The notes beneath the pieces were generated by a model. That model had not been told where the DNA came from. It saw only the letters and a list, made by a program, of their open reading frames with translations, and did no database searches. From Candidatus Iainarchaeum sp. (GTDB lineage Archaea > Iainarchaeota > Iainarchaeia > Iainarchaeales > JAZDEL01), in the NCBI GenBank assembly GCA_043808785.1, contig JAZDEL010000002.1, positions 1 through 32,000 on the forward strand: a stretch of DNA of 32,000 bases, in the 5' to 3' direction. This document shows, piece by piece, positions 3,073-27,437 of this stretch. The translations under genes were made by a program, and so were the position numbers. Every line of letters starts with the position of its first letter. Positions within the stretch are counted from its first letter, which is position 1.

Positions 3073-4185
3073 ATGGCATGGATGAAAAATAAGGGCGCAA
3101 TTTCCTGCAGGGCAATACTGCAGCCGCTCCTTGTGCTTGCCCTGCTTACCTTGCTCTCAATCCCCATCGCCGCATACATAGGCGAGATGAACGCGCAGGG
3201 CAGGCTCTCCAATTCAACAGGCTTTGTTACAGGCGATTACAACATCGCGTTCACGATTTACAATGCCGAATCAGGGGGAAGCGCGCTCTGGACCGAAATA
3301 CACGACGGCGCAAACAAGGTGGGCGTGAACAACGGCTATTTCAGCACAACCCTCGGAACAATTAACCCTATAGAGGACCTTAACTTCCTGCAGGATTACT
3401 GGCTCGGGGTTAATGTCGAAAACACCGGTTACATGAGCCCGAGGCACAGGTTAACCCCTCTCCCCGGCTGCTTCACCTCGGAAACGGCGCAGGACGTGAA
3501 CTGCTCCTCGTGCATCTCCGACAGCGACGCCGACAACAGCCTCACAATTGCAACCCCGAACCAGGTTACCCTGCTCGGTTCCTCAAACTTCAGGGACACG
3601 AATGCCGTGCACTCACTGCGCACAGGCTCTGCAGCACAGCCCGCATCCGCAGGCGACGTTAACCTCTCAGGCAACCTTGTTATGCAGGCAGGCCAGGAAA
3701 TTGTGATGCCTGACCCCGAGGCAAGCGGGGCCTCAAGCATCTTTGTGGAGGCGGTCACAAACCTCCCGCAGTCCTCGGACGTTAACGGCAACGGAATTTC
3801 AAGGTCTTCGGTATGGCTCACCTCAGGCGGCATACTCCAGCTCGGCATGCCTGTGCATACCCTTGAGTACGGCGCAACACCCGTAATTGACAGGATAAAT
3901 GTTTACGATTACAACATGGGTGCAACTTTCTATGTCGACACAGTGCGCATAGAGAGCGTTAACCCCGACACCGGCACGCCCACAGTGCGCGCGATTTACA
4001 CAACAGACCAGACAAGCGGCACGGAGATAAACATGACCTCCGTAAATACAACAGGCTTCCCTTACAAGATGGTGAACGCGCCGCACCGCCTTGCCCTCGA
4101 TTTCAATGTTGCCGACATTAACCCGCACAGGTTTTACGTTTATGGGTATGAAATTCAGTACCATCTCGCGTACACAAGCAGGTGA
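3073..4185 (+). CDS. Secreted surface protein, paralog 3 of 3
   Basis: It starts 7 nt after the paralog 2 stop, preceded by a GGTGAT SD at 3060-3065. A hydrophobic N-terminal signal is present, along with the same conserved blocks (AQGRL, FTIY, HDG, NGYF, LNFLQDYWLGV, MSPR, CSSC, LTIATPN, AGDVNLSGNL, IQYHL). Confidence 0.85.
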   Translation: MAWMKNKGAISCRAILQPLLVLALLTLLSIPIAAYIGEMNAQGRLSNSTGFVTGDYNIAFTIYNAESGGSALWTEIHDGANKVGVNNGYFSTTLGTINPIEDLNFLQDYWLGVNVENTGYMSPRHRLTPLPGCFTSETAQDVNCSSCISDSDADNSLTIATPNQVTLLGSSNFRDTNAVHSLRTGSAAQPASAGDVNLSGNLVMQAGQEIVMPDPEASGASSIFVEAVTNLPQSSDVNGNGISRSSVWLTSGGILQLGMPVHTLEYGATPVIDRINVYDYNMGATFYVDTVRIESVNPDTGTPTVRAIYTTDQTSGTEINMTSVNTTGFPYKMVNAPHRLALDFNVADINPHRFYVYGYEIQYHLAYTSR

Positions 4186-4192
4186 GTTTTGA

Positions 4193-7100
4193 ATGGGCGG
4201 AATAAGCAAAGTGTGTTTTGTGTTTTTCCCCCTTGCCGTGGCACTTGCCTGCGCCGCACATGCCTCGGTCATGGGCAGCACCAACTACACGATGGAAGCG
4301 GATGTTTTCGCAGGCGGAACCGCAAGCAGCGCAACAGGCTACGACCTCAACGCGTTTTCCGTCGGCGAATTGGTTGCAGGCAACGCCTCCTCAGGCAGGT
4401 ATTTTGCCTATGTCGGGTTCCTGGCAACAGGCGCGGAAAAATGCAACGGCTGGGACGACGACCAGGACGGGAGCATTGACGAGGGCCCGTGGCCCGCGGA
4501 AACCTGCGGCAACGGCGTAGATGATGATTGCGACGGCAGCATTGATGAAGGGGCGTGCGGCACTGTTGCCATTGGCGGCACCGACGGCACGGCTGTGCGC
4601 CCCGCCTCTGGCTGCACATATTCCTGCGCAGGGCAGGAGGTATGCCCTGGCACGGTTTACGCCACAAGCGCGGGCGAGGTTTGCTGCAGCAGGCTGTGCA
4701 TTCCGGCAAGGGACCTGAACTATGCTGATGTGGCAATTACCTCCATGGGGCTCTCAAAGCACAACGCAAGTTCGGGCGACCTTGTGGAGTTCACCATAAA
4801 AATAAGGAACCGCGGCTCCGCAGCCTCAGGAAAGTTTGAAATCGCATTTTACATCCTGCGCGAACCAACGCAGGGAACCGCGGCTTTTTCCCCTGCAGCA
4901 GGCAAGCAAGCATACGCGCTTTTCGCGGATGAAAGCGAATTGGCAACATGGTCCGAGTTCGCCAGGTTCGAGGTTAACTCCCTTGCCCCGGGTGCGGAAA
5001 CAACAATTTCCGCGTCTTTCGACACCACAGGCTACAGCGGAGTCCTCGACTTGGGCGTGATGCTCGATTCTGAAAACTCAATAAGGGAAATAGACGAGGT
5101 CAACAACTGGGCGGACGCAAGCCTTGCAATAAGCGGCGGAATTACGCACCCTGAAATCTGCGGCAACAACATTGACGACGACCAGGACGGAATGGTTGAC
5201 GAGGATTGCACCGAAATCTGCGGCAACCTTATCGATGACGACCTTGACGGCAGGGTAGACGAGGGCTGCACAATCATATGCGACGGCAACATCTCTGGCG
5301 TTCCTCCGCAGCGCGAACTCGAGTGTGCGGCAGGCGGTGAAAAGCGGGCTCTTTTCAGCGACAAATACGTGAACGGCTTCTGCCTCGGCGGATGTGAAAA
5401 AACCCTCACGATTTATGCCGACGGTTCGGTCGGATATATCGAGAACATGTACGGCAATGTAAAGGAAATGCACGCAACCCTTACCTCGCAGGAACTGCAG
5501 CGCTTCAAGAACACAGTTGAAAACAGCGGCTTCCTCGCTCTCGACAAGGATTATTACACCTGCAGGGGCGCGCCAACAGACGCAGGCTCGCACACCTATG
5601 AATACACCAGCGGCGGCACCATAAAGAAAGCGGGCTTCTACTCGGCATGCACCTCGGAAATAGACCTCTCATTCCCGCGCGCATTCGGCATCATAGGCGC
5701 GGAACTCGGCACAATAAGCGGCATGCTTGAGGGCGGCGCCGCGCCCTCTGGAACCTCCCTTGCGGATATTTACGCCTGCACCGCAGATGCGGACTGCACC
5801 AACATACAGGACGGCTGCTGCGACTGCAACTACGGCGGCAGGAACACATCCATAAACAGGCGCTATGTGCAGTGCTGGCTCGAACACCTCGAGCAGGAAT
5901 TCACCTGCAGCGAAGCATTTTGCATAACCATGCCTTCGCTTGACCCGAGCTGTTTTGCGCTTCCAAAATGCGTTAACGGCCTCTGCACGAACGCTTCAGG
6001 TGATGCATGCTCCCGCATCACGCCCGAAACCTGCGGCAACAACATAGATGACGACCTTGACGGAATGGTTGACGAGGATTGCACCGAGGTTTGCACGGAC
6101 GGCATAGACAACGACCTCGACGGCAGGATTGACGAGGGCTGCGGCGAAATCTGCGACGACCATATCGACAACGACCTCGACGGCCTTACGGATGAGGATT
6201 GCTACACAATGCCGGAAATCTGCGGGGACGGGATAGACAACGATTTTGACGGCAGGATAGATGAAGGGTGCGGCGAGATATGCGGCAACAACATAGATGA
6301 CGACCTCGACGGCCTCATTGATGAGGAGTGCTATGAACTGCAGGAAATCTGCGGCAACAACTTGGATGACGACCACGACGGACTTGTGGACGAGCCGCCC
6401 TGCACTGACGGCGTGCCGGACAGCGATGATGACGGCCTTACCGATGAAGTGGAGCGCGGCATAGGCTCCGACCCGTATAATCCCGACACAGACTCAGACA
6501 GCCTGCGCGACGGAAAGGAAATAAACGAAACAGACACTAGCCCCATACTTTTTGACACAGACGAGGATAATGTCGGGGACGGCCAGGAATTCCTGTACGA
6601 CATAACCGACCCGGTAGACCCTATGAGCAACCTGCTCGAGCTTGTGATGAAGCCCGATGTCCCGGTAGGCGGGCAGCAGGAAGTTGGGGTAAAGCACCCC
6701 GCACTTGGCCTTATCCAAGGCATTTCCGCGCAGGTTATTTCCCCGTCCGGCGCGAAGCAGGGCTTCACTGCAGCGGATTCCAAAATAACCTTCACTGTCA
6801 AGGAGGAGGGAGTTTACACAGTGCTTGTAAGCAAGAAGGCATATTCCGCATCTGGCACATTTAATGGCGTGGGCACAGGCCTTGCAATAGGCGGCTATGC
6901 AGGCGACCTTGCCTCGCTTATATTCGGCTCCTCCCTGTTTGAAAACCCGTTGCTTGTCCTGCTCCTCTGCGTACTTTCAATTGCAGCATGCATCCTAGCA
7001 TACAGGAACAGTGCGGTGCTTTTCCGCGGGCGCGGCATGCCGCTTGCGGAAACCGCGGAGAGGAGGGAGAAGCTCAAGCGCGCGGGGGTAGCGGTGTTGT

Positions 7101-7249
7101 TCTTCATCGTGCCGCTGCTCATAAACAGGTTCCTTGACACCGGCTTGGCAATCCTTTTCGCTGTGCTCGAGATAGCGGTGATTTACGCCGCAACCTATAT
7201 GCTGCGCGCAAAAACCCGCGCAATGGAAGAGAAGCCGATAAGGGTTTAA
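4193..7249 (+). CDS. Giant membrane-anchored surface protein with MopE-like Cys/Asp repeats, a CARDB-like domain and thrombospondin type 3-like Asp repeats
   Basis: An aggtga SD lies 7 nt upstream and the N-terminus is a signal peptide (VCFVFFPLAVALACAAHA). About 10 copies of C(G/T/D)(N/D)x(I/V/L)D(D/N)D(x)DGxxDE(x)C occur in three clusters (about 4440-4555, 5155-5270 and 6020-6405). This resembles the 'putative metal-binding motif' repeat of MopE-type proteins. A CARDB-like segment is present (DVAITSM...FTIKIRNRGSAASG...NSLAPGAETTI...EVNNWA). An Asp-rich DSDDDGLTDE...DPYNPDTDSDS...FDTDEDNVGDG run resembles TSP3 calcium-binding repeats. Three C-terminal hydrophobic helices follow. Confidence 0.85.
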   Translation: MGGISKVCFVFFPLAVALACAAHASVMGSTNYTMEADVFAGGTASSATGYDLNAFSVGELVAGNASSGRYFAYVGFLATGAEKCNGWDDDQDGSIDEGPWPAETCGNGVDDDCDGSIDEGACGTVAIGGTDGTAVRPASGCTYSCAGQEVCPGTVYATSAGEVCCSRLCIPARDLNYADVAITSMGLSKHNASSGDLVEFTIKIRNRGSAASGKFEIAFYILREPTQGTAAFSPAAGKQAYALFADESELATWSEFARFEVNSLAPGAETTISASFDTTGYSGVLDLGVMLDSENSIREIDEVNNWADASLAISGGITHPEICGNNIDDDQDGMVDEDCTEICGNLIDDDLDGRVDEGCTIICDGNISGVPPQRELECAAGGEKRALFSDKYVNGFCLGGCEKTLTIYADGSVGYIENMYGNVKEMHATLTSQELQRFKNTVENSGFLALDKDYYTCRGAPTDAGSHTYEYTSGGTIKKAGFYSACTSEIDLSFPRAFGIIGAELGTISGMLEGGAAPSGTSLADIYACTADADCTNIQDGCCDCNYGGRNTSINRRYVQCWLEHLEQEFTCSEAFCITMPSLDPSCFALPKCVNGLCTNASGDACSRITPETCGNNIDDDLDGMVDEDCTEVCTDGIDNDLDGRIDEGCGEICDDHIDNDLDGLTDEDCYTMPEICGDGIDNDFDGRIDEGCGEICGNNIDDDLDGLIDEECYELQEICGNNLDDDHDGLVDEPPCTDGVPDSDDDGLTDEVERGIGSDPYNPDTDSDSLRDGKEINETDTSPILFDTDEDNVGDGQEFLYDITDPVDPMSNLLELVMKPDVPVGGQQEVGVKHPALGLIQGISAQVISPSGAKQGFTAADSKITFTVKEEGVYTVLVSKKAYSASGTFNGVGTGLAIGGYAGDLASLIFGSSLFENPLLVLLLCVLSIAACILAYRNSAVLFRGRGMPLAETAERREKLKRAGVAVLFFIVPLLINRFLDTGLAILFAVLEIAVIYAATYMLRAKTRAMEEKPIRV

Positions 7250-7255
7250 TATTCT

Positions 7256-7549
7256 CTAGGCGGGATATTTCCTTTTGCAGCCGCACTCTTTGCAGGAGAA
7301 CTCTTCAAGCGTGCCCGCCTTTTTCGTTTTCATTTTCGCCTCCCCTGCCCAATATGCCCCGCACTTCCTGCAGAACCTTTTCTTCAGTTCCCTTGGAATG
7401 GGCACGCGGTTCCTCTTTCCTAATTCACGCGCAAGGTGCACATACCTTTTGCTCCTTTCGGGATGCTTTTCGAATTCCTTTTCCGCAAGTTCGAAAAGCC
7501 TGCGCATCCTTTCCAGGGTTATTTCCCGTACAAGCCCCTTTCCCATCAA
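7256..7549 (-). CDS. rnp4: RNase P protein component 4 (Rpr2/Rpp21 family zinc ribbon)
   Basis: The N-terminal helical region ITLERMRRLFELAEKEF..RSKRYVHLARELGKRNRVPIPRELKKRFCRKCGAYW is followed by a second Cys pair (CKECG). This is the layout of archaeal Rpr2. The stop is TAG. Confidence 0.75.
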   Translation of the reverse strand: MMGKGLVREITLERMRRLFELAEKEFEKHPERSKRYVHLARELGKRNRVPIPRELKKRFCRKCGAYWAGEAKMKTKKAGTLEEFSCKECGCKRKYPA

Positions 7550-7558
7550 ACCACCATT

Positions 7559-8485
7559 TCAAGGTGCGGCCGGGTTGATTATGGGGAACGCGTAATAAAC
7601 CTCCACTATCGCGCCCGCAACCACGAGCATTGCCGCAAACACCAGGATTACAAGCGCGTCAACAACAAGCATGCCGAAATTTTCCGAATTGAAATTCTCC
7701 CATATTGCCCTGAATGTTATGGCGCCCGAAATTGCGGAGCAGAGGTAAGCAGCAGCCTCTATTATCAGGTGCGGCATTATCGCAACAAGGGTTATCAGCG
7801 CAAAGAGCAGGACGTTCCCGTCCCCCGAAAGTGCGTTCGCCCTGAGGTAGCTGCCGAGTATCACGCCCCATACTGACGCGTTCCACACGACAATGAAAAT
7901 TCCAGACCTGTAAACCAGTGAAATTATGAAGCATATCGCGAAAACCCCGATGTTGTTCAGGAATATGTCCGCAAGCGAAATCGCGCCCGCCGATGCCGCG
8001 CCAGTTGCCGAGCCTGCGGCTTCCACAGCGGACCCGACATTAAAAATCCCCTTCTGCTGCAGGAACAGGTTCTGTGCCATGTCCGCGGGCAGCATCAGCT
8101 GCAGAACCGTGTAAACCACAAAAACCCCGAGGAAGCTGAAAACATACGCCCTGAACAAATCCCCGTGGTTTTCAATCACCTTGAGCGGATTAAACCAGCC
8201 GCTTATCTGCGATGCCCTGAGTTCCGTGATTTTTATTCCCTTCTCCGCCTTTACTTCCGTTTCAGTCCCCACAGTCATTGCCCTTGTTGAAATCAACTTA
8301 TCCCACGAGGGGAAAACCGCAAGCGAGGTGAAGAAAACGCTTATCATCCCTATGCCGCCCGCGAGCGAACCCCCCGCAAAAAGCACCCATGCAGTTGTGA
8401 TTCCGAGCAGCGCACACCCCACTCCCGTGAGGAAAGCAAGCAGCGGCGCATGCCTTACGGCGTCCCTTATCGACTTGAGGTTCAT
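7559..8485 (-). CDS. Polytopic membrane protein, DUF95/SpoIIM-like
   Basis: Multiple predicted TM helices are present. The segment MPHLIIEAAAYLCSAISG resembles the PHGxxExxA motif of the DUF95 (stage II sporulation protein M-like) family. It starts 1 nt after the upstream stop. Confidence 0.55.
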   Translation of the reverse strand: MNLKSIRDAVRHAPLLAFLTGVGCALLGITTAWVLFAGGSLAGGIGMISVFFTSLAVFPSWDKLISTRAMTVGTETEVKAEKGIKITELRASQISGWFNPLKVIENHGDLFRAYVFSFLGVFVVYTVLQLMLPADMAQNLFLQQKGIFNVGSAVEAAGSATGAASAGAISLADIFLNNIGVFAICFIISLVYRSGIFIVVWNASVWGVILGSYLRANALSGDGNVLLFALITLVAIMPHLIIEAAAYLCSAISGAITFRAIWENFNSENFGMLVVDALVILVFAAMLVVAGAIVEVYYAFPIINPAAP

Positions 8486-8486
8486 G

Positions 8487-8957
8487 CTACAATAACGCCT
8501 TGCGGGTTTTTAATGGTTTTCTTGGCTGCATCCGACGTGGAACTTCCAGTTTGAGCTTACCCTGCCTGAAGCCACGGGTAGTGTGAATGCAACCTGTCTG
8601 CACAATTTTCAAATTCCCCCAATTAAGGTTTGCCATCTTGAAGAATTCCTTAGGGAAACTCCTTGCGCAGGCATCTTGGTATACGCCGTATGCCTCACCC
8701 TTTGCATTCGGCGAAATTTTGAGTCCCCCCTTGCTAATCTGTGAAATAACTTCTTCAGCCACACCGCTCCACACCCCGTGTTTTGCGCTGACCGCTACCC
8801 TGTTTTTCAGCATGCGCCGCAAAAACAATTCCAAATCATTCTCGGCTTTTTCCATTTCGCTTTTCCTATTCTGGTCGACCTTCCATGCAGGTTCGTTTGG
8901 GTTATTCGGCGGTGCCTGTTTGCCCGCGATTCCCCGCCTAACTGCCGCCTCAAACAA
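8487..8957 (-). CDS. Hypothetical protein; may be the C-terminal part of a gene interrupted by an in-frame TAG
   Basis: The ORF starts only at a TTG, two codons after the TAG that ends ORF 8961-9164, and it is in the same frame. No family was recognised. Confidence 0.45.
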   Translation of the reverse strand: MFEAAVRRGIAGKQAPPNNPNEPAWKVDQNRKSEMEKAENDLELFLRRMLKNRVAVSAKHGVWSGVAEEVISQISKGGLKISPNAKGEAYGVYQDACARSFPKEFFKMANLNWGNLKIVQTGCIHTTRGFRQGKLKLEVPRRMQPRKPLKTRKALL

Positions 8958-8960
8958 TTC

Positions 8961-9164
8961 CTACCTTGTTGGTATTCCGCTTTTCACAAGCACGACAAGC
9001 GAGTTCGGCTCGTTCTGCGCCACATTTTTTATAAGCGGATTGAGCACTGTTTCTATTAATGCATTCGTCTGTCTCGCTGCCTGTTGTGGCGTTCTTGTCG
9101 TTGCGATGAACGTATGCGCAGGATGCGTTATGAAATAAATCTTGTCTATTATTTTTTCAGCCAC
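8961..9164 (-). CDS. Hypothetical protein; may be the N-terminal part of a gene interrupted by an in-frame TAG
   Basis: The product is 67 aa (MAEKIIDKIYFITHPAHTFIATT...SLVVLVKSGIPTR) and ends at TAG 8961-8963. It looks like part of an alpha/beta domain rather than a complete protein. Confidence 0.45.
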   Translation of the reverse strand: MAEKIIDKIYFITHPAHTFIATTRTPQQAARQTNALIETVLNPLIKNVAQNEPNSLVVLVKSGIPTR

Positions 9165-9181
9165 ATTTCCGCCTCAGTTGT

Positions 9182-9294
9182 CCGCCCGCCCCAAGGCGGG
9201 CACTTGCAGTTTTCGCCAGCCTTCGCAGGCAGCGTGATTTTTGCGAAGCAAAAATCCTTCTTTTTGCTAACTTTTTCTTGCAAAGAAAAAGTTA
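9182..9294. repeat. Mosaic palindromic repeat locus R1 (modules A+B+C)
   Basis: Module A is gcccgccccaaggcgggcacttgcagttttcgcca, also found at 27283-27318. Module B is gcgtgatttttgcgaagcaaaaatccttctttttgc at 9232-9267. Module C is the hairpin aactttttcttgcaaagaaaaagtt at 9269-9293, ending 1 nt from the tRNA 3' end. Confidence 0.85.
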
Positions 9295-9431
9295 TGCGCC
9301 CGCCGGGACTCGAACCCGGACGAAGAGCTTGCCCCAACAACCGCAACCTGCCTTGTGTTTCTTTTGTCAACTTTTCTTTCTTAAAGAAAAGTTGTTGGAG
9401 GGCTCTCATGCTGCCATTACACCACGGACGC
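9295..9431 (-). tRNA. tRNA-Gly (anticodon TCC) with a roughly 66-nt intron at 37/38 (intron 9330-9395)
   Basis: A manual cloverleaf was built. The acceptor is GCGTCCG/CGGGCGC plus A73, the D arm GTGT-AATGGCA-GCAT, the anticodon stem AGAGC/GCTCT, the variable loop 4 nt (TCGT), and the T arm CCGGG-TTCGAGT-CCCGG. The spliced loop is CCTCCAA. G1-C72, C2-G71, G3-C70, A73 and a 4-nt variable loop fit Gly. A 3-nt CAA bulge next to the anticodon stem and a 4-bp CCUC/GGGG helix fit a relaxed bulge-helix-bulge motif. The TATA box aatatattaata lies at 9461-9472. Caveat: position 33 would be C. Confidence 0.65.
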
Positions 9432-9525
9432 ATTTTCGCCTGCGCGCCACTTGGCGCGTGAATATATTAATAGCCGCCTCGGTTAATAATTTAATTGTTC
9501 TCCCTGCATTGAGGAAGGGTTTGAT

Positions 9526-10245
9526 ATGGCCAAAAATGCGAAAAACGCTAAAAATGCAGGTTCGGGCAAAGGCGCGGTTTCCGCAAAAAAACAAAGGCCA
9601 AAAACCCGCGCGCCGCGGGTTAAGGGGTTTTTCCTTGTTATTGACGGCATTGACGGCTCGGGGAAGGGCACAATCCTTTCGCTCCTGCATGATTGGTTCC
9701 TTGCGCAGGGGGTTCCGCCGGGTAGGCTCCTGCTTACCGCCGAACCGACTTCAGGCGCCTATGGCAGGCGCATAAGGGAACTCCTCCGTTCCGGCGCCGA
9801 CCCTCACGCCCGGGCGCGCGAACTGCTGAACCTTTACATAAAGGACAGGAAGGAGCACATTTCCCGCGCAATTCTGCCAGCGCTTTCCGCTGGAAAAATA
9901 ATCCTGTGCGACCGCTACAAATACAGCACAATTGCATACCAGTCCGCGCAGGGTTTGGATAAGGGCAAACTGATTTCCCTGCACAAAAAAATGCCGGTGC
10001 CGAACCTTGCCTTGATTTTGGATTTGCCTGTTGAGGAAGCGCTTTCCCGCATCTCCTCCGACAGCAGCCGCAGCGGCAAGGACGTTTTCGAGCGCTCCGC
10101 GTTCCTTGAGAAAGTGCGCGCCAATTTCCTCGCGCTTAAGGAGGAACTGCCGAAGGAGAAAATCGCGGTTATTGACGCCTCGGGAACCAAAGAGGAAGTT
10201 TTTGGGCGCGTGCTCGCGGCAGTGAAGAAAAGTGCCGCAATTTAA
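9526..10245 (+). CDS. tmk: Thymidylate kinase with a basic N-terminal extension of about 31 aa
   Basis: The P-loop region is FFLVIDGIDGSGKGT. The DRY-type motif CDRYKYSTIAYQ and a typical C-terminal half are present. No start codon lies nearer the P-loop, and V32 (GTT) sits where Tmk proteins normally begin. Confidence 0.85.
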   Translation: MAKNAKNAKNAGSGKGAVSAKKQRPKTRAPRVKGFFLVIDGIDGSGKGTILSLLHDWFLAQGVPPGRLLLTAEPTSGAYGRRIRELLRSGADPHARARELLNLYIKDRKEHISRAILPALSAGKIILCDRYKYSTIAYQSAQGLDKGKLISLHKKMPVPNLALILDLPVEEALSRISSDSSRSGKDVFERSAFLEKVRANFLALKEELPKEKIAVIDASGTKEEVFGRVLAAVKKSAAI

Positions 10246-10258
10246 TTGCCCGCATTAA

Positions 10259-10348
10259 GCGTGATTTTCGCCGAAGGCGAAAATCCTTCTTTTTGCTTGC
10301 TTTTGTTGACTTTTCGGAAGCGGGCTATGCCCGCGCTCCTAAAAGTCA
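10259..10348. repeat. Mosaic palindromic repeat locus R2 (module B plus a C-like hairpin)
   Basis: Module B is gcgtgattttcgccgaaggcgaaaatccttctttttgc at 10259-10296. It is followed by gacttttcggaagcgggctatgcccgcgctcctaaaagtc, a hairpin that abuts the tRNA 3' end. Confidence 0.8.
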
Positions 10349-10526
10349 TGCGACTGCCGGGAATCGAACCCGGGTCTGAACCTTGTTGCAAGAACCTCCT
10401 GTGAGGCTTCGGAACCGCAGGTTCCGCCGCCCTGCAGAACCCGCAAGGGTTCTGCCGCAAGGGAGGTATCGGAACCGTAGGTTCTGATGTGGCAAGGTCC
10501 AAGCCTAACCGCTAGCCTACAGTCGC
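10349..10526 (-). tRNA. tRNA-Gly (anticodon GCC) with a 106-nt intron at 37/38 (intron 10384-10489)
   Basis: The acceptor is GCGACTG/CAGTCGC plus A73, the D arm GGCT-AGCGGTTA-GGCT, the anticodon stem GGACC/GGTTC, the variable loop AGAC, and the T arm CCGGG-TTCGATT-CCCGG. The spliced loop is TTGCCAA. A 3' CAA bulge and a perfect 4-bp central helix UUGC/GCAA are present, and the 5' bulge is enlarged (relaxed BHB). The A/T box ttttaaaa at 10558-10565 lies about 32-39 nt upstream. Confidence 0.75.
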
Positions 10527-10539
10527 ATGCCCTCTAAAC

Positions 10540-11952
10540 CTATTTCCTAAGCAAATCTTTTAAAACGAATATAGATGTGGCTGCAATTATAAGCACAAGC
10601 CCTGCAATTGCAAGCGCCTTTACCGCCTGTATTGCCGCATCCCCTGCGCTCATTTTGGGTGCAGGCGCCACCCTTGCGGAAAGCCCGCCCTCGGGGTAAA
10701 CCTCGATGTAATCGCTTATATTGCCGTCCGGCAGCAGCAATATGAATTCATACCTCCCATACGCGCCCATGGTTTCGAATTTCGGCGCAACAACAATGAA
10801 TTCCGCAGTTCCCCACTCCCCCGGCTTCAGCCACACAAGCCTCTTCGATATGCCCTTTATTTTGAAATCCCTGTGCATTTCCAGCTCCACAGGAACTATC
10901 ACATTCATTTTCTGCAGGCCTTTCATTTCTATCGCCAGCCCGACATCCTGCATCGATTCCCCCTTATCCTTCCTCACACTTGCCTGCACAATTCCCATGA
11001 AAACCCTTACTTCGTTTATGGACACCTTCGGCGCCAGGAGCGTGATTTTCGCCTTCACCGAATTTATTGTGTTAGTTGCCACTGTTATGTTTGATAAATC
11101 GTTCACGTCCGCGGACTTCGCAAGCGGGAAATGCAGCGCATCCACATACCCTGCCTCGCCGTATGTAGGGTCCACGCCCACCCAGCCTGTGCCGGGCAGG
11201 TAAGCCTCGATCCAGCCGTGGTTGTTGAATTCCTCCCCGTTGTAACTTACGCCCGAAACATACCTTACGGGAATGCCCTTCGCCCTCATCAGTGCGGCAG
11301 CCATGTTTGCGAACTCGCCGCACACCCCGCGCCTTATCTCGAACGTTTCCCTCGCCCCGTTTTTCACGCCGTAATAGCCGCGGTCGTACGTTATGTTCGA
11401 GTTCACCCACTCGGTTATCCCCCTTATCGCCTCTATTTCCGACGTGCCGCGGAATTCCGAATTCGTGAAATCAACAATCTCATTTGCGTCGCTCTCTATG
11501 AACTCGGTGGGTTCCAGGAATTCCGCCATTTCCTCGCCCCACCCGCCCTTTCCGAGGATGAAATCTTCCCCCAGCCCCATACTCGCGGTGCGCTTTACCC
11601 TTGCCCTTACCTTTATTTCGAACCGCGGGGTTTTTTCATATTTATACATATCCGGAATTTCAAACACCGCATACATCACTCCGTTCAAATCCTCGTTCCT
11701 TGCGTTGTAAGTTTCCCCGCCCATAACCAGGGTTTCCCCGAGGTACTCGACTTCCTGCCCCTCCTGCGCTGCAGGGATTATGAACCTGACTTCCAGCGTG
11801 TCCTGCGCGCTCAATACGCCCGTTATTTCCCCGCTTGCGCCTGTTTCGATAATCACATCGGCATAGTTCACGGTTTCGGGCATTATTTCCTGCGCCGAGC
11901 ATGCCTGCGCCGCAAGCAACACAAGCGCGAGCAAAGCCACTTCTTTTTTCAT
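10540..11952 (-). CDS. Transglutaminase-like cysteine protease-fold protein, secreted and C-terminally anchored
   Basis: The N-terminal signal is MKKEVALLALVLLAAQACSA. The transglutaminase core is RGVCGEFANMAAALMRAKGIPVRYVSG...HGWIEAYL...WVGVDPT, giving a Cys-His-Asp triad. A C-terminal TM helix (ALAIAGLVLIIAATSIFVL) is present. Confidence 0.85.
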   Translation of the reverse strand: MKKEVALLALVLLAAQACSAQEIMPETVNYADVIIETGASGEITGVLSAQDTLEVRFIIPAAQEGQEVEYLGETLVMGGETYNARNEDLNGVMYAVFEIPDMYKYEKTPRFEIKVRARVKRTASMGLGEDFILGKGGWGEEMAEFLEPTEFIESDANEIVDFTNSEFRGTSEIEAIRGITEWVNSNITYDRGYYGVKNGARETFEIRRGVCGEFANMAAALMRAKGIPVRYVSGVSYNGEEFNNHGWIEAYLPGTGWVGVDPTYGEAGYVDALHFPLAKSADVNDLSNITVATNTINSVKAKITLLAPKVSINEVRVFMGIVQASVRKDKGESMQDVGLAIEMKGLQKMNVIVPVELEMHRDFKIKGISKRLVWLKPGEWGTAEFIVVAPKFETMGAYGRYEFILLLPDGNISDYIEVYPEGGLSARVAPAPKMSAGDAAIQAVKALAIAGLVLIIAATSIFVLKDLLRK

Positions 11953-11985
11953 GCAGAATAAGTTATCCGTTCAATAATAAAAATG

Positions 11986-12150
11986 CGGCGGTTCAGCCTT
12001 TTCGGAGCGTGGGGCTTCGCTATTTTGCCTTGCCCTATTTTGCCTCTTGGCAAAATGGGCGCAATTGGCTGTAGCCAATTAGCGCGGCAAAATGCGCGCA
12101 TTCGGCTCAAGCCGAATAGCGTCAGCCCCACTTCCAAAAGCCTGGGGAAA
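11986..12150. repeat. Mosaic palindromic repeat locus R5 (modules F, E, G)
   Basis: Module F is gcggttcagccttttc at 11988-12003, identical to 27186-27201. Module E at 12037-12085 is attttgcctcttggcaaaatgggcgcaattggctgtagccaattagcgc, matching 26228-26277. The segment ccacttccaaaag at 12128-12140 is the reverse complement of 27320-27332. Confidence 0.8.
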
Positions 12151-12184
12151 AACGTTAGCCAGCGCATCCCGAACCAGCGAAAAC

Positions 12185-12583
12185 TCAGAAATCCTCCGCG
12201 ACAAACCCGGCAAGCGCCTTCCTTGCGTCGTCCATCCTGTTTACCTTTGCGGCAAAAATCCCCCTGCCCCCTTTCTTTGTCAGGAGGTAGATGTGCTCTA
12301 TGTTTATCTTCGACTTCTCGAGGATTCTCGCAATCTTCGCAAGCGAGCCCGCCCTGTCGTCCGCTGAAAAGAGCAGGATTTCGGACTCAGTTAACTTGTA
12401 GCCCGTATTTGCAAGCGCCTTCTTCGCCCCCGCAACATCCCGTGTTACCATGCGTATGATTGCGCCGTCCGCAAACGTTTCCGCGCTTATGCTCTCCATG
12501 TTTATCCCGTTATTGCCGAGGCGTTCCGCGATTTCCGCAAGCACCCCCGGCCTGTTGTCCGTCAGTATTGTCAGTTGCTTCAT
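12185..12583 (-). CDS. Tandem ACT-domain protein
   Basis: Two ACT-like units are visible: LTILTDNRPGVLAEIAERLGNNGINMESISA and LLFSADDRAGSLAKIARILEKSKINIEHIY. An AGGAGGG SD lies at 12589-12595 on the minus strand. Confidence 0.75.
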   Translation of the reverse strand: MKQLTILTDNRPGVLAEIAERLGNNGINMESISAETFADGAIIRMVTRDVAGAKKALANTGYKLTESEILLFSADDRAGSLAKIARILEKSKINIEHIYLLTKKGGRGIFAAKVNRMDDARKALAGFVAEDF

Positions 12584-12613
12584 GCCATCCCTCCTGATTT
12601 TTTTTGTGTTGAA

Positions 12614-12676
12614 GCGTGATTTTCGCGAAGCGAAAATCCTTCTTTTTGCAAACTTTTTCTTTCCAAGAAAAAGTTT
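12614..12676. repeat. Mosaic palindromic repeat locus R3 (modules B+C)
   Basis: Module B is gcgtgattttcgcgaagcgaaaatccttctttttgc at 12614-12649. Module C is aactttttctttccaagaaaaagtt at 12651-12675, ending 1 nt from the tRNA-Val 3' end. Confidence 0.85.
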
Positions 12677-12749
12677 TGGGCCGGGGCGGAATCGGACCGC
12701 CGATTTCTGCCTTGTAAAGGCAGCGTCATAGCCGCTAGACCACCGGCCC
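12677..12749 (-). tRNA. tRNA-Val (anticodon TAC), intronless
   Basis: The minus strand reads GGGCCGG-TG-GTCTAGCGGCTATGAC-G-CTGCC-TTTACAA-GGCAG-AAATC-GGCGG-TCCGATT-CCGCC-CCGGCCC-A. This is a perfect 7-bp acceptor with anticodon loop TT-TAC-AA. No CCA is encoded. The TATA box tttaaa at 12777-12782 lies 28-33 nt upstream. Confidence 0.9.
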
Positions 12750-13451: not shown

Positions 13452-15335
13452 TTAGGCGCCGAGCGCCACAGCCTTAACCTTTTTAGTTCCCTCTACTTTC
13501 CCGCGTTTCATGCCGACGAGGTAGCCGACGCCTGACTCATCCGCCTTCGAAGCAAGGCGCTGCGTAACAATGCCGTCGAAAACAACAGCATGTACGCCCT
13601 TCTCGGTGCCGAGCTTCCCGATAAGTTCCTTGACATCGCATTCCCCGACTTGCTTCATCGCGCTGTCGAAGAGCCTTGCCTTGAAGCTTCCCGAAAGTTC
13701 CTTCATCACAGGAATGAACTGCGACTCTTCTTCCGCAGTGAGCCTCGGGCATGTTTCGCGCTTCTCGAATCCGCCTGCCCCTTCATCCCTGCCCCTTCCG
13801 AAGCTTGGGCGCGCTCCGCCCCTGCCCCTTCCTGGCCCGTCCCTTCCTGGGCCTGCCCTTGAACCGAATCCTCCGCGTTCACTGCGCCCTCCGAATCCGC
13901 CCTCCCTTCCGGAGCCGCGGCCGAAGCCCCCTCTCCTCGGGCCTGCCCTGCCCCCTCTTGGAGGCCCGCTGCGGGAACCGAAGCCCCTTGATGGGCTGCG
14001 CCTTTCCCTGCCGGAGTAAGCGGATTCTCCTGAAACCGCAGGCTTCTCCCCGCCGTTGCTCATGCTGTGCGCCTCCGCAACATCCTGAACATAGCCGGAG
14101 CTTTCTCCCGCACCCTTTGCGCCCGTGCCGTAATCATCGCGAGGCTCTCTCGGGGTGCCGTAGCCCCTGTCCCTGAAACCTCCCCTTGAGCCGAAGCCTC
14201 CTGCGCGCCTGTCAGGGTATCCTGAACTGCCGCGCATTCCGCCCCTGTCTCTTCCGGAATAGCCGCGCCCTGTCCCCGAAAAGCCCCTCCCTTCGGAACG
14301 CCCGCGCCTCGGTGCGTAATCGCCGCCACCTTCAGGAGTGCCCCTTCCGCCACCGCGGTAGCCGCGTTCGTCCCTGCCGCCGAAGCCTCCGCGTTCGTGG
14401 CGCCCTTCCCCTGCGGAATATCCGCCAGCGGAAACGCTCCTGATAATTGCTTCGCCAGAAACCTCGTGCCCCGTATCTGCAGTGATGTGTTCCCTCCCAT
14501 TGAAGCCGTGCCTGAAATCTTCCTCATCCGCGGGAACCCGCCTCTTGAGGGAAAGCAATATTTCTTTGCCTGTAAGCTCTTCCACTTCCTTCCCATCTGG
14601 CGCGCGCGCAACATATGCGACGCTCGCAATCTGCTTAAGCTTCCTCGCGTTCAGTTCCCCGCCCCTGTCGCCGTCCACAAACACGGTTAATTTCTTCCTC
14701 CTGCTTAATTGCACAACCACGGGGCTTATCTGCGAACCCCCCATTCCTATTGCGTTCTTTATACCGTTCTTCAGGAGGTTAAGCACGTCAGCCCTTCCCT
14801 CGACAACAATCAGCTCGTCGCTGTCGTCTATATCCGGGCCTGCAGGCACCTTGTCTTTTCCATACCCCACAATTTCAGCCTTGCGGGCGCTGCCCCTTAT
14901 CTCCTCAGTGAGTTCGTTGCTTTCTGGTATCTGCTCCTTCATCATCCTCTGCAGCAGCACCTTTGCGCGCTCCTTGATTATCTCGCGCTTCGCGCCCCTC
15001 ACATCCTCTATGTTCGTTATCTTGAACTCCGCATCGCACGGCCCCACCTTATCCACGGTTTCGATTCCCGCTGCAAGCGTGCTTGTCTGCACCATGTCCA
15101 TGCTGCTTGGGACAAGAATTTCGCCCTTTGTCCTGCCCATGCTGCTCTTTGAATTTATTTCAATCCTGCCGACCTTCCCGTTTTTCTGCAGTTCCTTGAG
15201 GTCCATCTCGTCCCCGAGCAGGCCCTCGCTCTGCCCGAAGATTGCGCCGATTATATCGGGCTTCTCCACAATGCCCGAAATAACGAAGTCTATATGTATC
15301 ATGTACTTGACCGTGTTCAAATAAGTTTTAGCCAT
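13452..15335 (-). CDS. dnaG: Archaeal DnaG (TOPRIM, exosome-associated) with a large internal RG/RGG-rich low-complexity insertion
   Basis: The N-terminal region is YMIHIDFVISGIVEKPDIIGAIFGQSEGLLG. The TOPRIM motifs are LIVVEGRADVLNLLKNGIKNAIGMGG and TVFVDGDRGGE. The C-terminal block is HAVVFDGIVTQRLASKADESGVGYLVG. A GGAGGA SD lies upstream. Residues about 296-525 are almost entirely G/R/S/F/E/P. Confidence 0.85.
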   Translation of the reverse strand: MAKTYLNTVKYMIHIDFVISGIVEKPDIIGAIFGQSEGLLGDEMDLKELQKNGKVGRIEINSKSSMGRTKGEILVPSSMDMVQTSTLAAGIETVDKVGPCDAEFKITNIEDVRGAKREIIKERAKVLLQRMMKEQIPESNELTEEIRGSARKAEIVGYGKDKVPAGPDIDDSDELIVVEGRADVLNLLKNGIKNAIGMGGSQISPVVVQLSRRKKLTVFVDGDRGGELNARKLKQIASVAYVARAPDGKEVEELTGKEILLSLKRRVPADEEDFRHGFNGREHITADTGHEVSGEAIIRSVSAGGYSAGEGRHERGGFGGRDERGYRGGGRGTPEGGGDYAPRRGRSEGRGFSGTGRGYSGRDRGGMRGSSGYPDRRAGGFGSRGGFRDRGYGTPREPRDDYGTGAKGAGESSGYVQDVAEAHSMSNGGEKPAVSGESAYSGRERRSPSRGFGSRSGPPRGGRAGPRRGGFGRGSGREGGFGGRSERGGFGSRAGPGRDGPGRGRGGARPSFGRGRDEGAGGFEKRETCPRLTAEEESQFIPVMKELSGSFKARLFDSAMKQVGECDVKELIGKLGTEKGVHAVVFDGIVTQRLASKADESGVGYLVGMKRGKVEGTKKVKAVALGA

Positions 15336-15432: not shown

Positions 15433-15720
15433 TCAGGGCGCAGGGGAAATTTTCCCGGAGAGGATTTCGCGGAGTTCTTCCGCGCCCATGCCCTCTATGA
15501 AAACCTTTTTGGTTTTCGATTTCAGGCCGGAAACAATCCTTGCTTTCCTTCCGAGTTCCTTTTCAAGGGCCTTTAACAATTCCCTGTTCGCCTTCCCTTT
15601 TACAGGCATGGATTTGAGCGCGATTTTCAGTACCGCGCTGTGCGGGTCGTAACCCGAAATTCCCGCGCGCTTCGCGCGGGTTTTCACTTCCAAGCCTATC
15701 AAAAGGCCTTTTTCAAGCAT
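15433..15720 (-). CDS. DUF167/YggU-family protein (UPF0235)
   Basis: LKIALKSMPVKGKANRELLKALEKELGRKARIVSGLKSKTKKVFIEG matches the xPxxGKANxEL...G.xSRxK pattern of DUF167 proteins. Confidence 0.7.
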   Translation of the reverse strand: MLEKGLLIGLEVKTRAKRAGISGYDPHSAVLKIALKSMPVKGKANRELLKALEKELGRKARIVSGLKSKTKKVFIEGMGAEELREILSGKISPAP

Positions 15721-15944
15721 TTAAACCTAAACCAACATTTTTTGGTTCCGCGCCTTTGCGGGAACAAAAACCAAACCCGATTTTAACGGTTAAAATTTTG
15801 GTTCTTTTCGGTTCCAAGTCGTGCCGCGTTGCGGCATACCTGTGCCCTGATTCTGGAATATTGCTGGATGTGAGGGTATATTAATATATTGGTTCGGGCA
15901 ACCTTTTGTGGGTGCGGGTTCGGCTGCTGATGGGGGCAAAAAAA

Positions 15945-25716: not shown

Positions 25717-26073
25717 TCACAGCAGTTTCAAATGCCCCGTCAGTTTATCCAGCTCGGCATCCTCCGCAGGCCCGACCCCGAAGCATGTTTTCGTGCCGGG
25801 CGCGATCTGTGTGTGCCCCGCATCCTGCACAAGCGCGGGCTTCAGCCCCGCGTTTTTAACCTTCTGGAAAAGTTCAACAAGTTCGCGCTCGCTGTTCACT
25901 TTCAGCACAACTTTTTTCTGCCCCTCGGAGCGCCATTCATCAACATCATCAGGGCTCTCCCTCTCCGCGTTCTCCATCGCCATTATGCTCGCGTGCGAGC
26001 ACTGCGCCGCTATTTTTCCCCTGCCCATTTTAAGGTCGGTGCGGACTACAATTACCTGTTTCATCCCAGCCAC
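25717..26073 (-). CDS. pth2: Peptidyl-tRNA hydrolase, archaeal/eukaryotic type (Pth2)
   Basis: MKQVIVVRTDLKMGRGKIAAQCSHAS...KVVLKV.SE.EL......AGL...LVQDAGHTQIAPGT.T..GVGP is the characteristic PTH2 sequence pattern. Confidence 0.85.
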   Translation of the reverse strand: MAGMKQVIVVRTDLKMGRGKIAAQCSHASIMAMENAERESPDDVDEWRSEGQKKVVLKVNSERELVELFQKVKNAGLKPALVQDAGHTQIAPGTKTCFGVGPAEDAELDKLTGHLKLL

Positions 26074-26143
26074 CCTGCGGCAATTGCCTGCTTCATACTA
26101 ATCTTTAATGGCAAACCCATATTTATACCCTGCGCGCCGAGTT

Positions 26144-26311
26144 GCTTTTGATTTTGCGAAGCAAAATCCTTCTTTTTGTCAACTTCCCGTTTTGGCAAAA
26201 GCCAAAAGGGCCCTTTTGGACCAGCCTATTTTGGCTCACGTCAAAATGGGCGCAGTTGGGCAATGCCCAACTAGCGCAGCCCAAAACGGGTTTCTTGCAA
26301 AGAAAAAGTTG
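26144..26311. repeat. Mosaic palindromic repeat locus R4 (modules B, split C, D, E)
   Basis: A 5'-shortened module B lies at 26146-26178. The 18-nt perfect palindrome ccaaaagggcccttttgg at 26202-26219 is identical to 27231-27248. Module E lies at 26228-26277. The right half of module C, tttcttgcaaagaaaaagttg, lies at 26291-26311. The arms cccgttttgg (26186-26195) and ccaaaacggg (26281-26290) bracket the inner modules. Confidence 0.85.
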
Positions 26312-26365
26312 CAGTGGAAATCAGCCCTGCGCGCGTTTTTAAACCGTGCCAAGGCATAATTTTTC

Positions 26366-26782
26366 ATGCAGAGGAAATTCTACCTCGACACCGCGATATG
26401 GATGGATTATTTCGGCGCGCGCGGCAACGGCATCAGGCCGCTCGGGGACCTCGCATTCCAGTTGCTGAAGAAGTGCCGCGAGGATAATTCGCAGATTATC
26501 GTTTCAGATGCCGTTACCGAGGAACTTGAAGCAAGCCTCTCCAAAGCGGAAATAGAAGCGATGTTTTCCGGTTTTGCAGGGCTAATTGCCAGGGTCTGGC
26601 GGACAAAGGAACAGGCAGTAGAGGCATTTGCCTTGCGCAGGAAATTAGGCAGCGAGTTCCCGCTTTACGACATCCTGCATTCGATTATTGCTAGAGATGA
26701 GAAAGCGGTTCTTGTCGCGCGCGACAGGCATTTCTGGGAAATTGGCATTGCGGAAGTTTGCCTGCCCGAGGATTTGCTTTAG
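26366..26782 (+). CDS. PIN-domain protein (VapC-like ribonuclease)
   Basis: The acidic PIN positions are present: FYLDTAIW (D near the N-terminus), VTEELE, LYDILH and ARDRHF. The size is typical of VapC toxins. A TATA-like box gtttttaaacc lies at 26334-26344. Confidence 0.7.
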   Translation: MQRKFYLDTAIWMDYFGARGNGIRPLGDLAFQLLKKCREDNSQIIVSDAVTEELEASLSKAEIEAMFSGFAGLIARVWRTKEQAVEAFALRRKLGSEFPLYDILHSIIARDEKAVLVARDRHFWEIGIAEVCLPEDLL

Positions 26783-26849
26783 CGCCCGCCTAATTCCGCG
26801 CATTGCTTTGGCTCAGGGCGCGGATGCATGCCATTTGGGGCCGAAGTCT

Positions 26850-27149
26850 TCACGGCTTTATGCCGAATTGTTCGCACAGCCTCTTTTCCAGTTCCCTGCT
26901 CCCTTCGCCGCTTCTCCATGCGTGAAATTCCTCGTCCGTTTTGAACCTGCCCTTCCCCTTGAATGCGCCTTTCGCGGCAAACAGCGCTTCCCACGCCTTT
27001 TTCTTCGAGCGCTCCCCGTCAAGTTCCTTGAGTTTCGCCCTTATGGCGTCCCTGATGAACTCTGTTTTGGTCGTATAATTGAACTCGCGCATTCCCTTTT
27101 CAACTTGCCTCGCAATCGAGGCATCCAGCTGAATGCTTATATGCTCCAT
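26850..27149 (-). CDS. Ribbon-helix-helix (CopG-like) DNA-binding protein
   Basis: The N-terminus ISIQLDASIARQVEKGMREFNYTTKTEFIRDAIRAKL is a canonical RHH (beta strand plus two helices). It is convergent with the PIN gene rather than co-transcribed. Confidence 0.7.
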   Translation of the reverse strand: MEHISIQLDASIARQVEKGMREFNYTTKTEFIRDAIRAKLKELDGERSKKKAWEALFAAKGAFKGKGRFKTDEEFHAWRSGEGSRELEKRLCEQFGIKP

Positions 27150-27185
27150 AGCATTAAATGCTACATAGTGCTTTTTAAAAAACCC

Positions 27186-27372
27186 GCGGTTCAGCCTTTT
27201 CTTATAAAGAAACCCGTTTTGGGCTAAAGCCCAAAAGGGCCCTTTTGGCGCAAGCCAAAACGGGAGGCTGGCGAAAAGAACAGCCCGCCTCTAGGCGGGC
27301 ACTCGCAGTTTTCGCCAACCTTTTGGAAGTGGGTTTGAGCCCAAGCGAAAACCCACGCTCCGAAAAGGTTGC
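27186..27372. repeat. Mosaic palindromic repeat locus R6 (modules F, D, A, G)
   Basis: Module F lies at 27186-27201, the 18-nt palindrome at 27231-27248, and module A (gcccgcctctaggcgggcactcgcagttttcgcca) at 27283-27318. The segment cttttggaagtgg lies at 27320-27332. The hairpin gtgggtttgagcccaagcgaaaacccac follows. Confidence 0.85.
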
Positions 27373-27437
27373 ACCGGAAACGCACCCTCCCAACCTTTTT
27401 AAACCAGGTTCGGGCAATTGTTATTCGGTGCGCGCAA

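Follow-up and report, generated by a model that had tools for sequence, protein, structure and literature searches.

T-rich palindromes at three tRNA 3' ends of a Candidatus Diapherotrites genome: a nested repeat family that may provide two-way transcription stops

Introduction

What is the hairpin that follows every tRNA gene in a stretch of archaeal DNA, and what might it do there? The question was raised by a 32-kb window (the whole stretch of DNA analyzed here, positions 1 to 32,000 of contig JAZDEL010000002.1) from the metagenome-assembled genome of one uncultured DPANN archaeon, Candidatus Diapherotrites; the window has a G+C content of 52.8% and contains three tRNA genes. An initial annotation had reported that the same hairpin modules abut the 3' ends of all three genes and had offered two explanations, a conserved trailer or terminator of tRNA transcripts and a mobile module with tRNA 3' ends as its target. 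In DPANN archaea, the signals for termination and the layout of intergenic regions are essentially unstudied, and the genomes are very compact, so that read-through between neighboring genes is a real risk. The analysis presented here suggests that the hairpins belong to a lineage-specific repeat family resembling bacterial repetitive extragenic palindromes (REPs) and BIMEs, which turns over by copying or recombination and whose T-rich arms would supply oligo-T termination signals on both strands, a reading to which we give about even weight.

Results

A T-rich hairpin abuts each tRNA gene

The tRNA-Gly(UCC), tRNA-Gly(GCC), and tRNA-Val genes, all on the minus strand, each carried directly 3' a perfect T-rich hairpin whose outermost base pair touched the discriminator (Table 1), and the reported hairpin next to every tRNA 3' end was thus present in 3 of 3 cases. 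Hairpin C (AACTTTTTCTTnnnAAGAAAAAGTT) was located at 9269-9293 and 12651-12675, beside tRNA-Gly(UCC) and tRNA-Val, and had no match in 100 shuffles; both of these copies became perfect 12-bp stems ending next to the discriminator once a flanking T..A or A..T pair was counted. The hairpin of tRNA-Gly(GCC) (TGACTTTT...AAAAGTCA) was a longer, distinct subtype, designated F, whose outer arms, GACTTTT/AAAAGTC, enclosed a GC hairpin. The statement that the same modules recur at all three genes therefore held for module B, described below, and for C at two of the genes; for tRNA-Gly(GCC), “C-like” had been a fair term and “same” an inexact one. Stems of at least 11 bp numbered 0 to 1 per shuffle in Markov shuffles of the window, compared with three loci observed, and the trailers folded, on both strands, into the pair of hairpins expected (z-scores, -2.9 to -7.0).

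Hairpin C, a further type, G, and the F outer stem all varied a single design, CA(A/G)C(C/T)TTTT...AAAA(G/A)G(T/C)TG. An alignment of C and G hairpins was built from seven 27-nucleotide (nt) copies, five from the window and one each from the metagenomic contigs L054 and L060 of relatives, with a nested insert removed by hand in three copies. In this alignment, 97.6% of the cells paired; 5 of the 12 pairs differed at both positions, no pair differed at just one, and the compensation was Watson-Crick only, with no G-U pair. The T-run columns were invariant while neighboring stem positions varied. Correction of quasi-palindromes by template switching could give such paired changes without selection on structure. 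In total, the family comprised at least seven module types, each with a T4-5/A4-5 core, which nested in one another. At the gathering score of Rfam 15 the modules had no match and only the tRNAs were recognized; hairpin matches at 25900-27600 were at chance level.

Module B accompanies the hairpins on the opposite strand

The module B pattern, GATTTTn(2-4)GAAn(2-4)AAAATCCTTCTTTTTG, occurred four times in the window, always on the plus strand, and never in shuffles. Three occurrences stood beside the tRNA genes (9236-9266, 10263-10295, and 12618-12648), in the single orientation that had been reported, and the fourth (26150-26178) had no tRNA near it. In all copies, B consisted of a hairpin and a run of five T (T5) on the plus strand, i.e., opposite the strand of the three tRNAs. 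In the tRNA-Gly(GCC) flank, 10 nt (10297-10306) separated B from the F hairpin, and the plus-strand T5 began 45 nt past the tmk stop, at 10290. Across five copies, the B stem varied only in ways that kept it paired: a T-A pair had become C-G once, a C-G pair had been gained once, and both partners of a pair had been lost twice. A search for the bacterial-type terminator form (a GC-containing stem-loop with a T-rich tail 0 to 2 nt behind it) called all three tRNA-linked B copies on the plus strand, with 9 to 10 pairs and the tail CTTCTTTTTG; such calls numbered 7 overall, versus 6.5 in shuffles, and the form alone is therefore weak evidence.

Family modules were found in 6 of the 20 intergenic regions of at least 40 nt defined by our own curated gene list, and B was found in 4. 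The hypergeometric probability that all three tRNA 3' flanks fall within the four B-holding regions is 4/1140 = 0.0035, orientation not counted, and that they fall within the six regions holding any module is 20/1140 = 0.018. A role for B as promoter of the downstream minus-strand genes was considered and rejected: its spacing to the start codons was inconsistent (30, 67, and 75 nt), it had no TATA-like box, and the true Pth2 TATA box lay outside B.

Copies away from tRNAs are nested

The modules were not tRNA specific, as about half of the copies lay away from tRNAs. Non-tRNA copies were placed either just past a gene end or ~25 nt upstream of TATA boxes (ACT/transglutaminase, PIN, and NurA), placements that resemble terminator-promoter arrangements. 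The third copy of hairpin C was split by a 105-nt palindromic insert with the terminal inverted repeats CCCGTTTTGG / CCAAAACGGG. Rejoining the flanks (AACTT + TTTCTTGCAAAGAAAAAGTT) gave back an exact hairpin C, and there was therefore no target duplication. A 52-nt version of this insert split the G hairpin at the position equivalent to the C split, and the composite at 27192-27270 was an inverted copy of that at 26180-26311. Inserts lay at T-tract borders (CT^TTTC and CC^TTTT). The first copy of a further module, A, had counterparts at 27282-27320 and in the tRNA-Gly(UCC) trailers of the relatives L053 and L054.

The PIN and RHH genes were bracketed by inverted composite repeats of ~90 to 145 nt (26166-26311 and 27192-27283), each a split C/G hairpin plus palindromic insert, in an arrangement conserved in L060; the two genes might together form a cassette-like toxin-antitoxin unit. 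Immediately past a family hairpin, the PIN and NurA promoters (26312-26345 and 27372-27404) had in common the unit GCAsYGGAAAYsCAsCCC and then TTTTTAAACC, and the repeat may include a promoter-proximal part.

Modules turn over at orthologous sites in relatives

The known carriers of the family are the window genome and three metagenomic relatives (L053, L054, and L060), which were found only through protein neighbors. Hairpins of the same kind stood at orthologous sites in these relatives, often as another subtype or with extra nested hairpins. L053 and L054 were short contigs with the same local gene order as the window. The metagenomes SRR22387960, SRR22388062, and JGI 3300009513 contain relatives. 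L060 was the closest relative recovered (Pth2 identity of 88% at the amino acid level and 83% at the nucleotide level; same gene order), and the amino acid identity of tmk to the window was 63% for L053 and 60% for L054.

The RHH-NurA locus of L060 was conserved module by module, with two additional two-hairpin inserts, one of 43 nt at the T-tract border of F and one of 55 nt in the F loop, the 55-nt insert being shared with an F copy of L053. L060 kept the flanks of the Pth2-PIN locus, but an F-type hairpin stood where the window has B and the split C. The tmk/tRNA-Gly(GCC) spacer of L053 held a B-like hairpin plus TGTTCTTTTTGCC a few nt past the tmk stop, with the stem kept by paired changes, and, 2 nt short of the tRNA, an F-type hairpin with outer and middle stems as in the window and a different inner hairpin; this spacer and the tmk coding sequence were equally similar to the window (62% nucleotide identity each). 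The tRNA-Gly(UCC) trailer contained an F-type hairpin and module A in L053 and an unsplit G-type hairpin and module A in L054, and a five-way alignment had a common backbone of T-rich 5' arm, variable interior, AGG(C/T)TG-GCGAAAA, and GC hairpin. In the window, the older hairpin of this trailer was reduced to its 3' arm, AGGCTG, with C+B in place of the 5' arm and flush with the tRNA; C+B was therefore the later arrival at tRNA-Gly(UCC). The comparison of orthologous loci that had been proposed in the initial annotation thus revealed modules replaced or gained in L060, L053, and L054, and it is evident from this turnover that copying of the family is active.

Four syntenic relatives with tmk amino acid identities of 53 to 58% (L049, L050, L051, and L056) were without these modules. 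Two of these, L049 and L051, had a plain ACTTTTTCT at +6/+7 past the tRNA and no hairpin, and because distant relatives keep this tract without a hairpin, the T-tract appears to be older than the palindrome. The ACT ortholog of L055 had its own promoter and no tRNA beside it, so that the tRNA-Val flank could not be compared there. In the other subclade, a perfect T/A-rich hairpin (e.g., CTTTTCTTTTTCTCGAAAAAGAAAAG) preceded tRNA-Val or tRNA-Gly(GCC), 2 to 4 nt away from the tRNA 5' end (L049, ~15706-15750; L050, ~3500-3560; L056, ~5233-5275; all on the minus strand), as an element partly common to different genomes.

Exact-pattern scans of reference genomes and JGI metagenomes gave no further module B carrier. 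A scan for GCRAAAATCCTTCTTTTTGY across 596 Gb (185,579 reference genomes) yielded 46 single chance matches, mostly in Flavobacteriaceae, and no genome with multiple copies. Two JGI metagenome matches to the full B pattern (L047 and L048) were rejected as chance look-alikes of the AT-rich bacterial terminator kind; that in L048, judged on a 700-nt stretch, was a simple 6-bp hairpin without the AGCGT head and GC-closing pairs of B. Among viral contigs (IMG/VR), the A/F junction pattern had no matches, and the hairpin C pattern was found in one bacterial phage-like element (L058, 430-600; L059, 9530-9700), as GCCAACTTTTTCTTTGAAAGAAAAAGTTGCC in a cluster of nested T-rich hairpins with anti-restriction, methyltransferase, and repair genes as neighbors. 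This GCCAACTTTTTCTTTGAAAGAAAAAGTTGCC was strikingly like the junction of B and hairpin C in the window, with the prefix TTCTTTTTGCCAAC common to both; homology to the family was set aside, and the hairpin is probably a convergent bidirectional terminator. A full-text literature search turned up no account of repeats of this kind in DPANN archaea.

tRNA introns and neighboring genes

All three tRNA genes were recovered with the Rfam model RF00005; ARAGORN reported tRNA-Val only and missed both tRNA-Gly genes because of their long introns. The intron of tRNA-Gly(UCC), much longer than the ~15 nt found in L053 and L054, contained a C-type hairpin; its interpretation as a recent C insertion was rejected, as the orthologous intron of the distant L051 had a comparable AACTTTT...AAAAGTT helix. 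The same tRNA had C at anticodon-loop position 33, where L049, L053, L054, and L056 had the near-universal U33. The intron of tRNA-Gly(GCC) (10385-10492) contained three similar GC-rich hairpins of the GGAACC-GNAG-GGTTCC type; the orthologous intron had 34 nt in L049, and L051 and L056 lacked it, which suggests that hairpin modules enlarge tRNA introns as well.

Default tools miss intron-rich tRNAs in these genomes, and spurious long open reading frames (ORFs) were called across repeat loci, across a tRNA, and antisense to a real gene (26108-26359, plus strand; 9149-9433, minus strand; 8587-9138, plus strand), which is a warning for annotation. The TAG-interrupted ORF downstream of tRNA-Gly(UCC) occupied the position of a DUF7523/ACT_7 gene in L049 and L051, had no Pfam match, and had no recognizable promoter following the modules; it may represent a pseudogene, reflect a sequencing error, or be read through at the stop codon. 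At 4193-7249 (plus strand), a 1,018-amino-acid protein with ~10 tandem 51- to 60-nt repeats coding for Cys...DxDxDG-type motifs (a MopE-like metal-binding motif) and a CARDB domain was encoded, probably a surface protein.

Table 1. Repeat modules, tRNA genes, and neighboring genes of the 32-kb window
Feature	Positions	Strand	Description
Rpr2	7256-7549	-	
Membrane protein gene	7559-8485	-	
ORF with in-frame TAG	8487-9164	-	225-codon frame, TAG at 8961-8963
Module A copy 1	9184-9221	+	GC hairpin GCCCGCC-nnnn-GGCGGGC, then ACTTGCAGTTTTCGCCAGCC
Module B copy 1	9231-9267	+	AGCGT-GATTTTTGC-GAA-GCAAAAATC-CTTCTTTTTGC; hairpin + T5
Hairpin C copy 1	9268-9294	.	TAACTTTTTCTT-GCA-AAGAAAAAGTTA; perfect 12 bp, flush with tRNA-Gly(UCC); T5 on both strands
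tRNA-Gly(UCC)	9295-9431	-	RF00005, 41.3 bits; intron ~70 nt
C-type hairpin in tRNA-Gly(UCC) intron	9368-9394		CAACTTTTCTTT-CTT-AAAGAAAAGTTG; perfect 12 bp; T4 then C then T3, without T5
tmk (thymidylate kinase)	9526-10245	+	Between tRNA-Gly(UCC) and tRNA-Gly(GCC)
Module B copy 2	10258-10296	+	tmk-sense hairpin + T5; starts 13 nt past tmk stop (10245)
F-type long hairpin	10307-10348	.	TGACTTTTCGGAAGCGGGC-TAT-GCCCGCGCTCCTAAAAGTCA; flush with tRNA-Gly(GCC); z = -7.0
tRNA-Gly(GCC)	10349-10526	-	RF00005, 41.5 bits; intron ~108 nt
Transglutaminase-like protein gene	10540-11952	-	
F-type outer hairpin	11994-12144	.	CAGCCTTTTCGGAGCGTGGGGCT...AGCCCCACTTCCAAAAGCCTG enclosing several small hairpins; between ACT 3' end and promoter of transglutaminase-like gene
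ACT protein gene	12185-12583	-	
Module B copy 3	12613-12649	+	3' of tRNA-Val
Hairpin C copy 2	12650-12676	.	AAACTTTTTCTT-TCC-AAGAAAAAGTTT; flush with tRNA-Val
tRNA-Val(UAC)	12677-12749	-	RF00005, 63.2 bits; also ARAGORN
DnaG-like Toprim protein gene	13452-15335	-	
Module B copy 4	26148-26179	+	Between divergent Pth2 (-) and PIN (+)
Hairpin C copy 3	26180-26311	.	CAACTT / TTTCTTGCAAAGAAAAAGTTG, split after 26185 by 105-nt palindromic insert (26186-26290)
PIN	26366-26782	+	Divergent from Pth2 (-)
RHH	26850-27149	-	Divergent from NurA
G-type hairpin	27192-27270	.	CAGCCTTTTCTTATAAAGAAA / AGGCTG, split by 52-nt version of the 105-nt insert (27213-27264)
Module A copy 2	27271-27320	+	Overlaps start of F-type hairpin 27316-27371
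F-type hairpin	27316-27371		CAACCTTTTGGAAGTGGG...CCCACGCTCCGAAAAGGTTG; just upstream of NurA promoter

Discussion

The hairpins as proposed two-way transcription stops

Archaeal RNA polymerase terminates at runs of 5 to 6 T, with the same outcome in vitro whether or not a hairpin comes first (PMC2253867). The tRNA-Gly(UCC) and tRNA-Val trailers have T5 from +5 onward, and that of tRNA-Gly(GCC) has T4 from +5. The palindromic AACTTTTTCTT...AAGAAAAAGTT would put T5 on whichever strand is transcribed and would thus be an orientation-independent stop. Hairpin C would end the tRNA transcript 5 to 9 nt past the discriminator, and C together with the hairpin and opposite-strand T-tail of module B would stop polymerases entering the tRNA gene from its 3' side, at tmk on the sense strand of the gene that converges on tRNA-Gly(GCC). 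The DnaG gene end is a plain CCTTTTCTTATTTTTTT, the first 12 nt of which (CCTTTTCTTAT) match the 5' arm of the G-type hairpin, and the T4CT3 of the intron hairpin in place of T5 is what would be expected if T5 is avoided inside a transcribed gene.

The family may spread and be homogenized by copying, either by recombination or gene conversion between similar outer arms or by some transposition; copying between sites would explain why the subtype changes among close relatives while the family hairpin stays at its site. The B+C cassette may be the variant now expanding in the window genome, and at tRNA-Gly(UCC) it would have replaced the 5' arm of an older G/F-type hairpin, leaving AGGCTG, GCGAAAA, and module A. 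It is because of the turnover data that we read the family as REP/BIME-like with T-tracts that do useful work. Both initial explanations survive in part. The conserved trailer or terminator agrees with the T-tracts past the tRNAs and the hairpins in relatives but fails on tRNA specificity, and the mobile module agrees with the nested insertion and the replacement at orthologous sites but not with the lack of exclusive tRNA targeting, target duplication, and a transposase.

Several points keep our confidence in two-way stops at a moderate level. If termination does not need a hairpin, the perfect palindromy and the flush +1 start are left unexplained. The loci at 26148-26311 and 27192-27371 lie between divergent genes, with no transcript that needs an end, and tRNA-Gly(GCC) has T4 only. 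The downstream same-strand genes, starting at 9164 and 12583, have no recognizable TATA box after the modules (9165-9294 and 12584-12676), so that efficient termination there would silence them. Other genes of the window manage with plain T-tracts or none. As regards a copying enzyme, Pfam scans found no transposase, RAYT, TnpA/TnpB, or integrase in the 32 kb among the ORFs that they covered. Finally, a T-rich hairpin starting at +1 to +4, with T4 or more at +5 to +10 in its 5' arm, occurred at 6 of 6 tRNA 3' ends (window, L053, and L054), but this count comprises three of this genome and three of close relatives, and the orthologous cases are not independent.

Alternative explanations

The alternative that survives best, although we consider it rather unlikely, is that these are purely selfish mobile palindromes (REPIN- or MITE-like, or IS200/IS605 hairpin ends) moved by an enzyme encoded elsewhere and of no benefit to the host, which gather at tRNAs because the flanks tolerate insertions or hold a preferred target, such as a T-tract or an existing hairpin. 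This would account for the 52-nt and 105-nt inserts with terminal inverted repeats inside hairpin arms and without target duplication, for the extra 43-nt and 55-nt inserts of L060 at T-tract borders, for the different modules at the same site in the window and L060, for the hairpins filling tRNA introns that are short or absent in relatives, and for the copies between divergent genes; the Watson-Crick-only compensation likewise suggests a DNA-level constraint. The absence of any transposase or integrase from the 32 kb counts against it, as does the conserved hairpin position at orthologous sites despite 60 to 63% tmk identity, with the subtype changing. Furthermore, the T-run that is invariant amid varying stem positions and the T5 missing from the intron copy suggest a sequence-specific constraint beyond propagation. 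Selfish propagation is largely compatible with two-way stops and differs from them only on function.

An improbable alternative is a tRNA-specific RNA element: the tRNA and the downstream gene would be cotranscribed, and RNase Z cleavage would leave an RNA with a blunt 12-bp hairpin at its 5' end, which would shield it from 5'-to-3' exonucleases or guide processing. The outermost hairpin pair at trailer position +1 in 3 of 3 window tRNAs fits this proposal, as do the Shine-Dalgarno-like sequences of the ACT gene (12583) and of the ORF from 9164, neither of which has a TATA box after the modules; in addition, the L054 hairpin has one G-U pair in the tRNA sense, equivalent to an A-C mismatch on the other strand. 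With T5 at +5, however, most transcripts should stop short of the 3' arm, and tRNA-Gly(GCC) has no downstream same-strand gene, as tmk converges on it. Identical modules exist without tRNAs, the hairpin is spaced at +3/+4 in L053, the L055 ACT ortholog has its own promoter without a tRNA, and the syntenic tRNAs of L049, L051, and L056 lack such hairpins.

In L049 (15544-15629, minus strand), a 64-nt segment containing two hairpins (TACCCATCCGAAGGATGGGTA and GAAACTTTTGGCAAAAGTTTC) lies between tRNA-Val and a 20-nt exact duplicate of the 3' end of this tRNA (TTCGAGTCCTCCCTGGCCCA), an arrangement that looks like an insertion or att-like scar. That the window hairpins are att-site scars of small integrative elements in tRNA genes, as this L049 case might suggest, is very improbable and largely refuted for the window. 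A search that allowed up to 4 mismatches in 18 nt found no second copy of any tRNA 3' end there, and neither a tRNA remnant beside the non-tRNA copies (including that of B+C) nor an integrase was detected; the flanking gene order is shared with L049, L051, and L056, so that no cargo was inserted. By-eye inspection gave no supporting motif for a dif/Xer site, a C/D-box sRNA, or a K-turn.

Comparison with known systems

Several known systems share features with the family. As in archaeal oligo-dT termination, which is RNA polymerase III-like, T5 lies directly past the gene and several T-tracts follow in series; in Pyrococcus furiosus, hpyA1 is followed by four consecutive T-tracts (PMC2253867). 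On the plus strand of the window, there were three T5 tracts in 40 nt at 9238-9276 and T8, T5, and T5 at 12598-12658. Unlike those of archaeal terminators, the T-tracts of the window sit in perfect, compensated palindromes that are repeated across loci and nested.

Bacterial bidirectional intrinsic terminators consist of a hairpin flanked by an A-tract and a T-tract, in which the hairpin precedes the U-tract and is mechanistically required. The family is similar in that one palindrome gives a U-tract on either strand, but its T-tract lies inside the 5' arm, and in archaea the stem itself would not be needed.

Among mobile elements, the PATEs of Haloquadratum walsbyi are reportedly archaeal MITE or IS200/IS605-derived palindromic elements. 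Like such elements, the modules are small and noncoding, have inverted ends or hairpins, and differ between strains, and like IS200/IS605 elements they show no target duplication; unlike them, they are much shorter (25 to 105 nt), are nested in each other's stems, and have invariant T-tracts, with no parent insertion sequence or TnpA/TnpB in the window. Of the two marks of a MITE, terminal inverted repeats and target-site duplication, the 52-nt and 105-nt inserts carry only the former.

REPs, BIMEs, and REPINs are bacterial repetitive extragenic palindromes that are arranged in mosaics, are moved by RAYT transposases, and have been suggested to act in termination or insulation. The window family resembles them in its several palindrome types in two-way mosaics, often at gene ends, in its paired stem changes, and in its two-hairpin units; it differs in its archaeal host, its T/A-rich rather than GC-rich stems, and the absence of a GTAG-type head or a RAYT from the window. 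More tentatively, the family might be an archaeal counterpart of REPs and REPINs, hosted by DPANN archaea of the Diapherotrites lineage: self-propagating nested T-rich palindromes used by the host as two-way terminators or insulators, one at every tRNA 3' boundary, swapped fast enough to differ between close relatives and copied by an enzyme not yet linked to archaeal repeats or by hairpin-templated repair. If true, this would offer a testable archaeal example of selfish-looking palindromes that serve as regulatory parts, with two-way stops swapped between orthologous sites. Judged from its sequences, the family appears to combine the sequence form of archaeal oligo-dT terminators with the genomic behavior of REP/BIME or REPIN elements.

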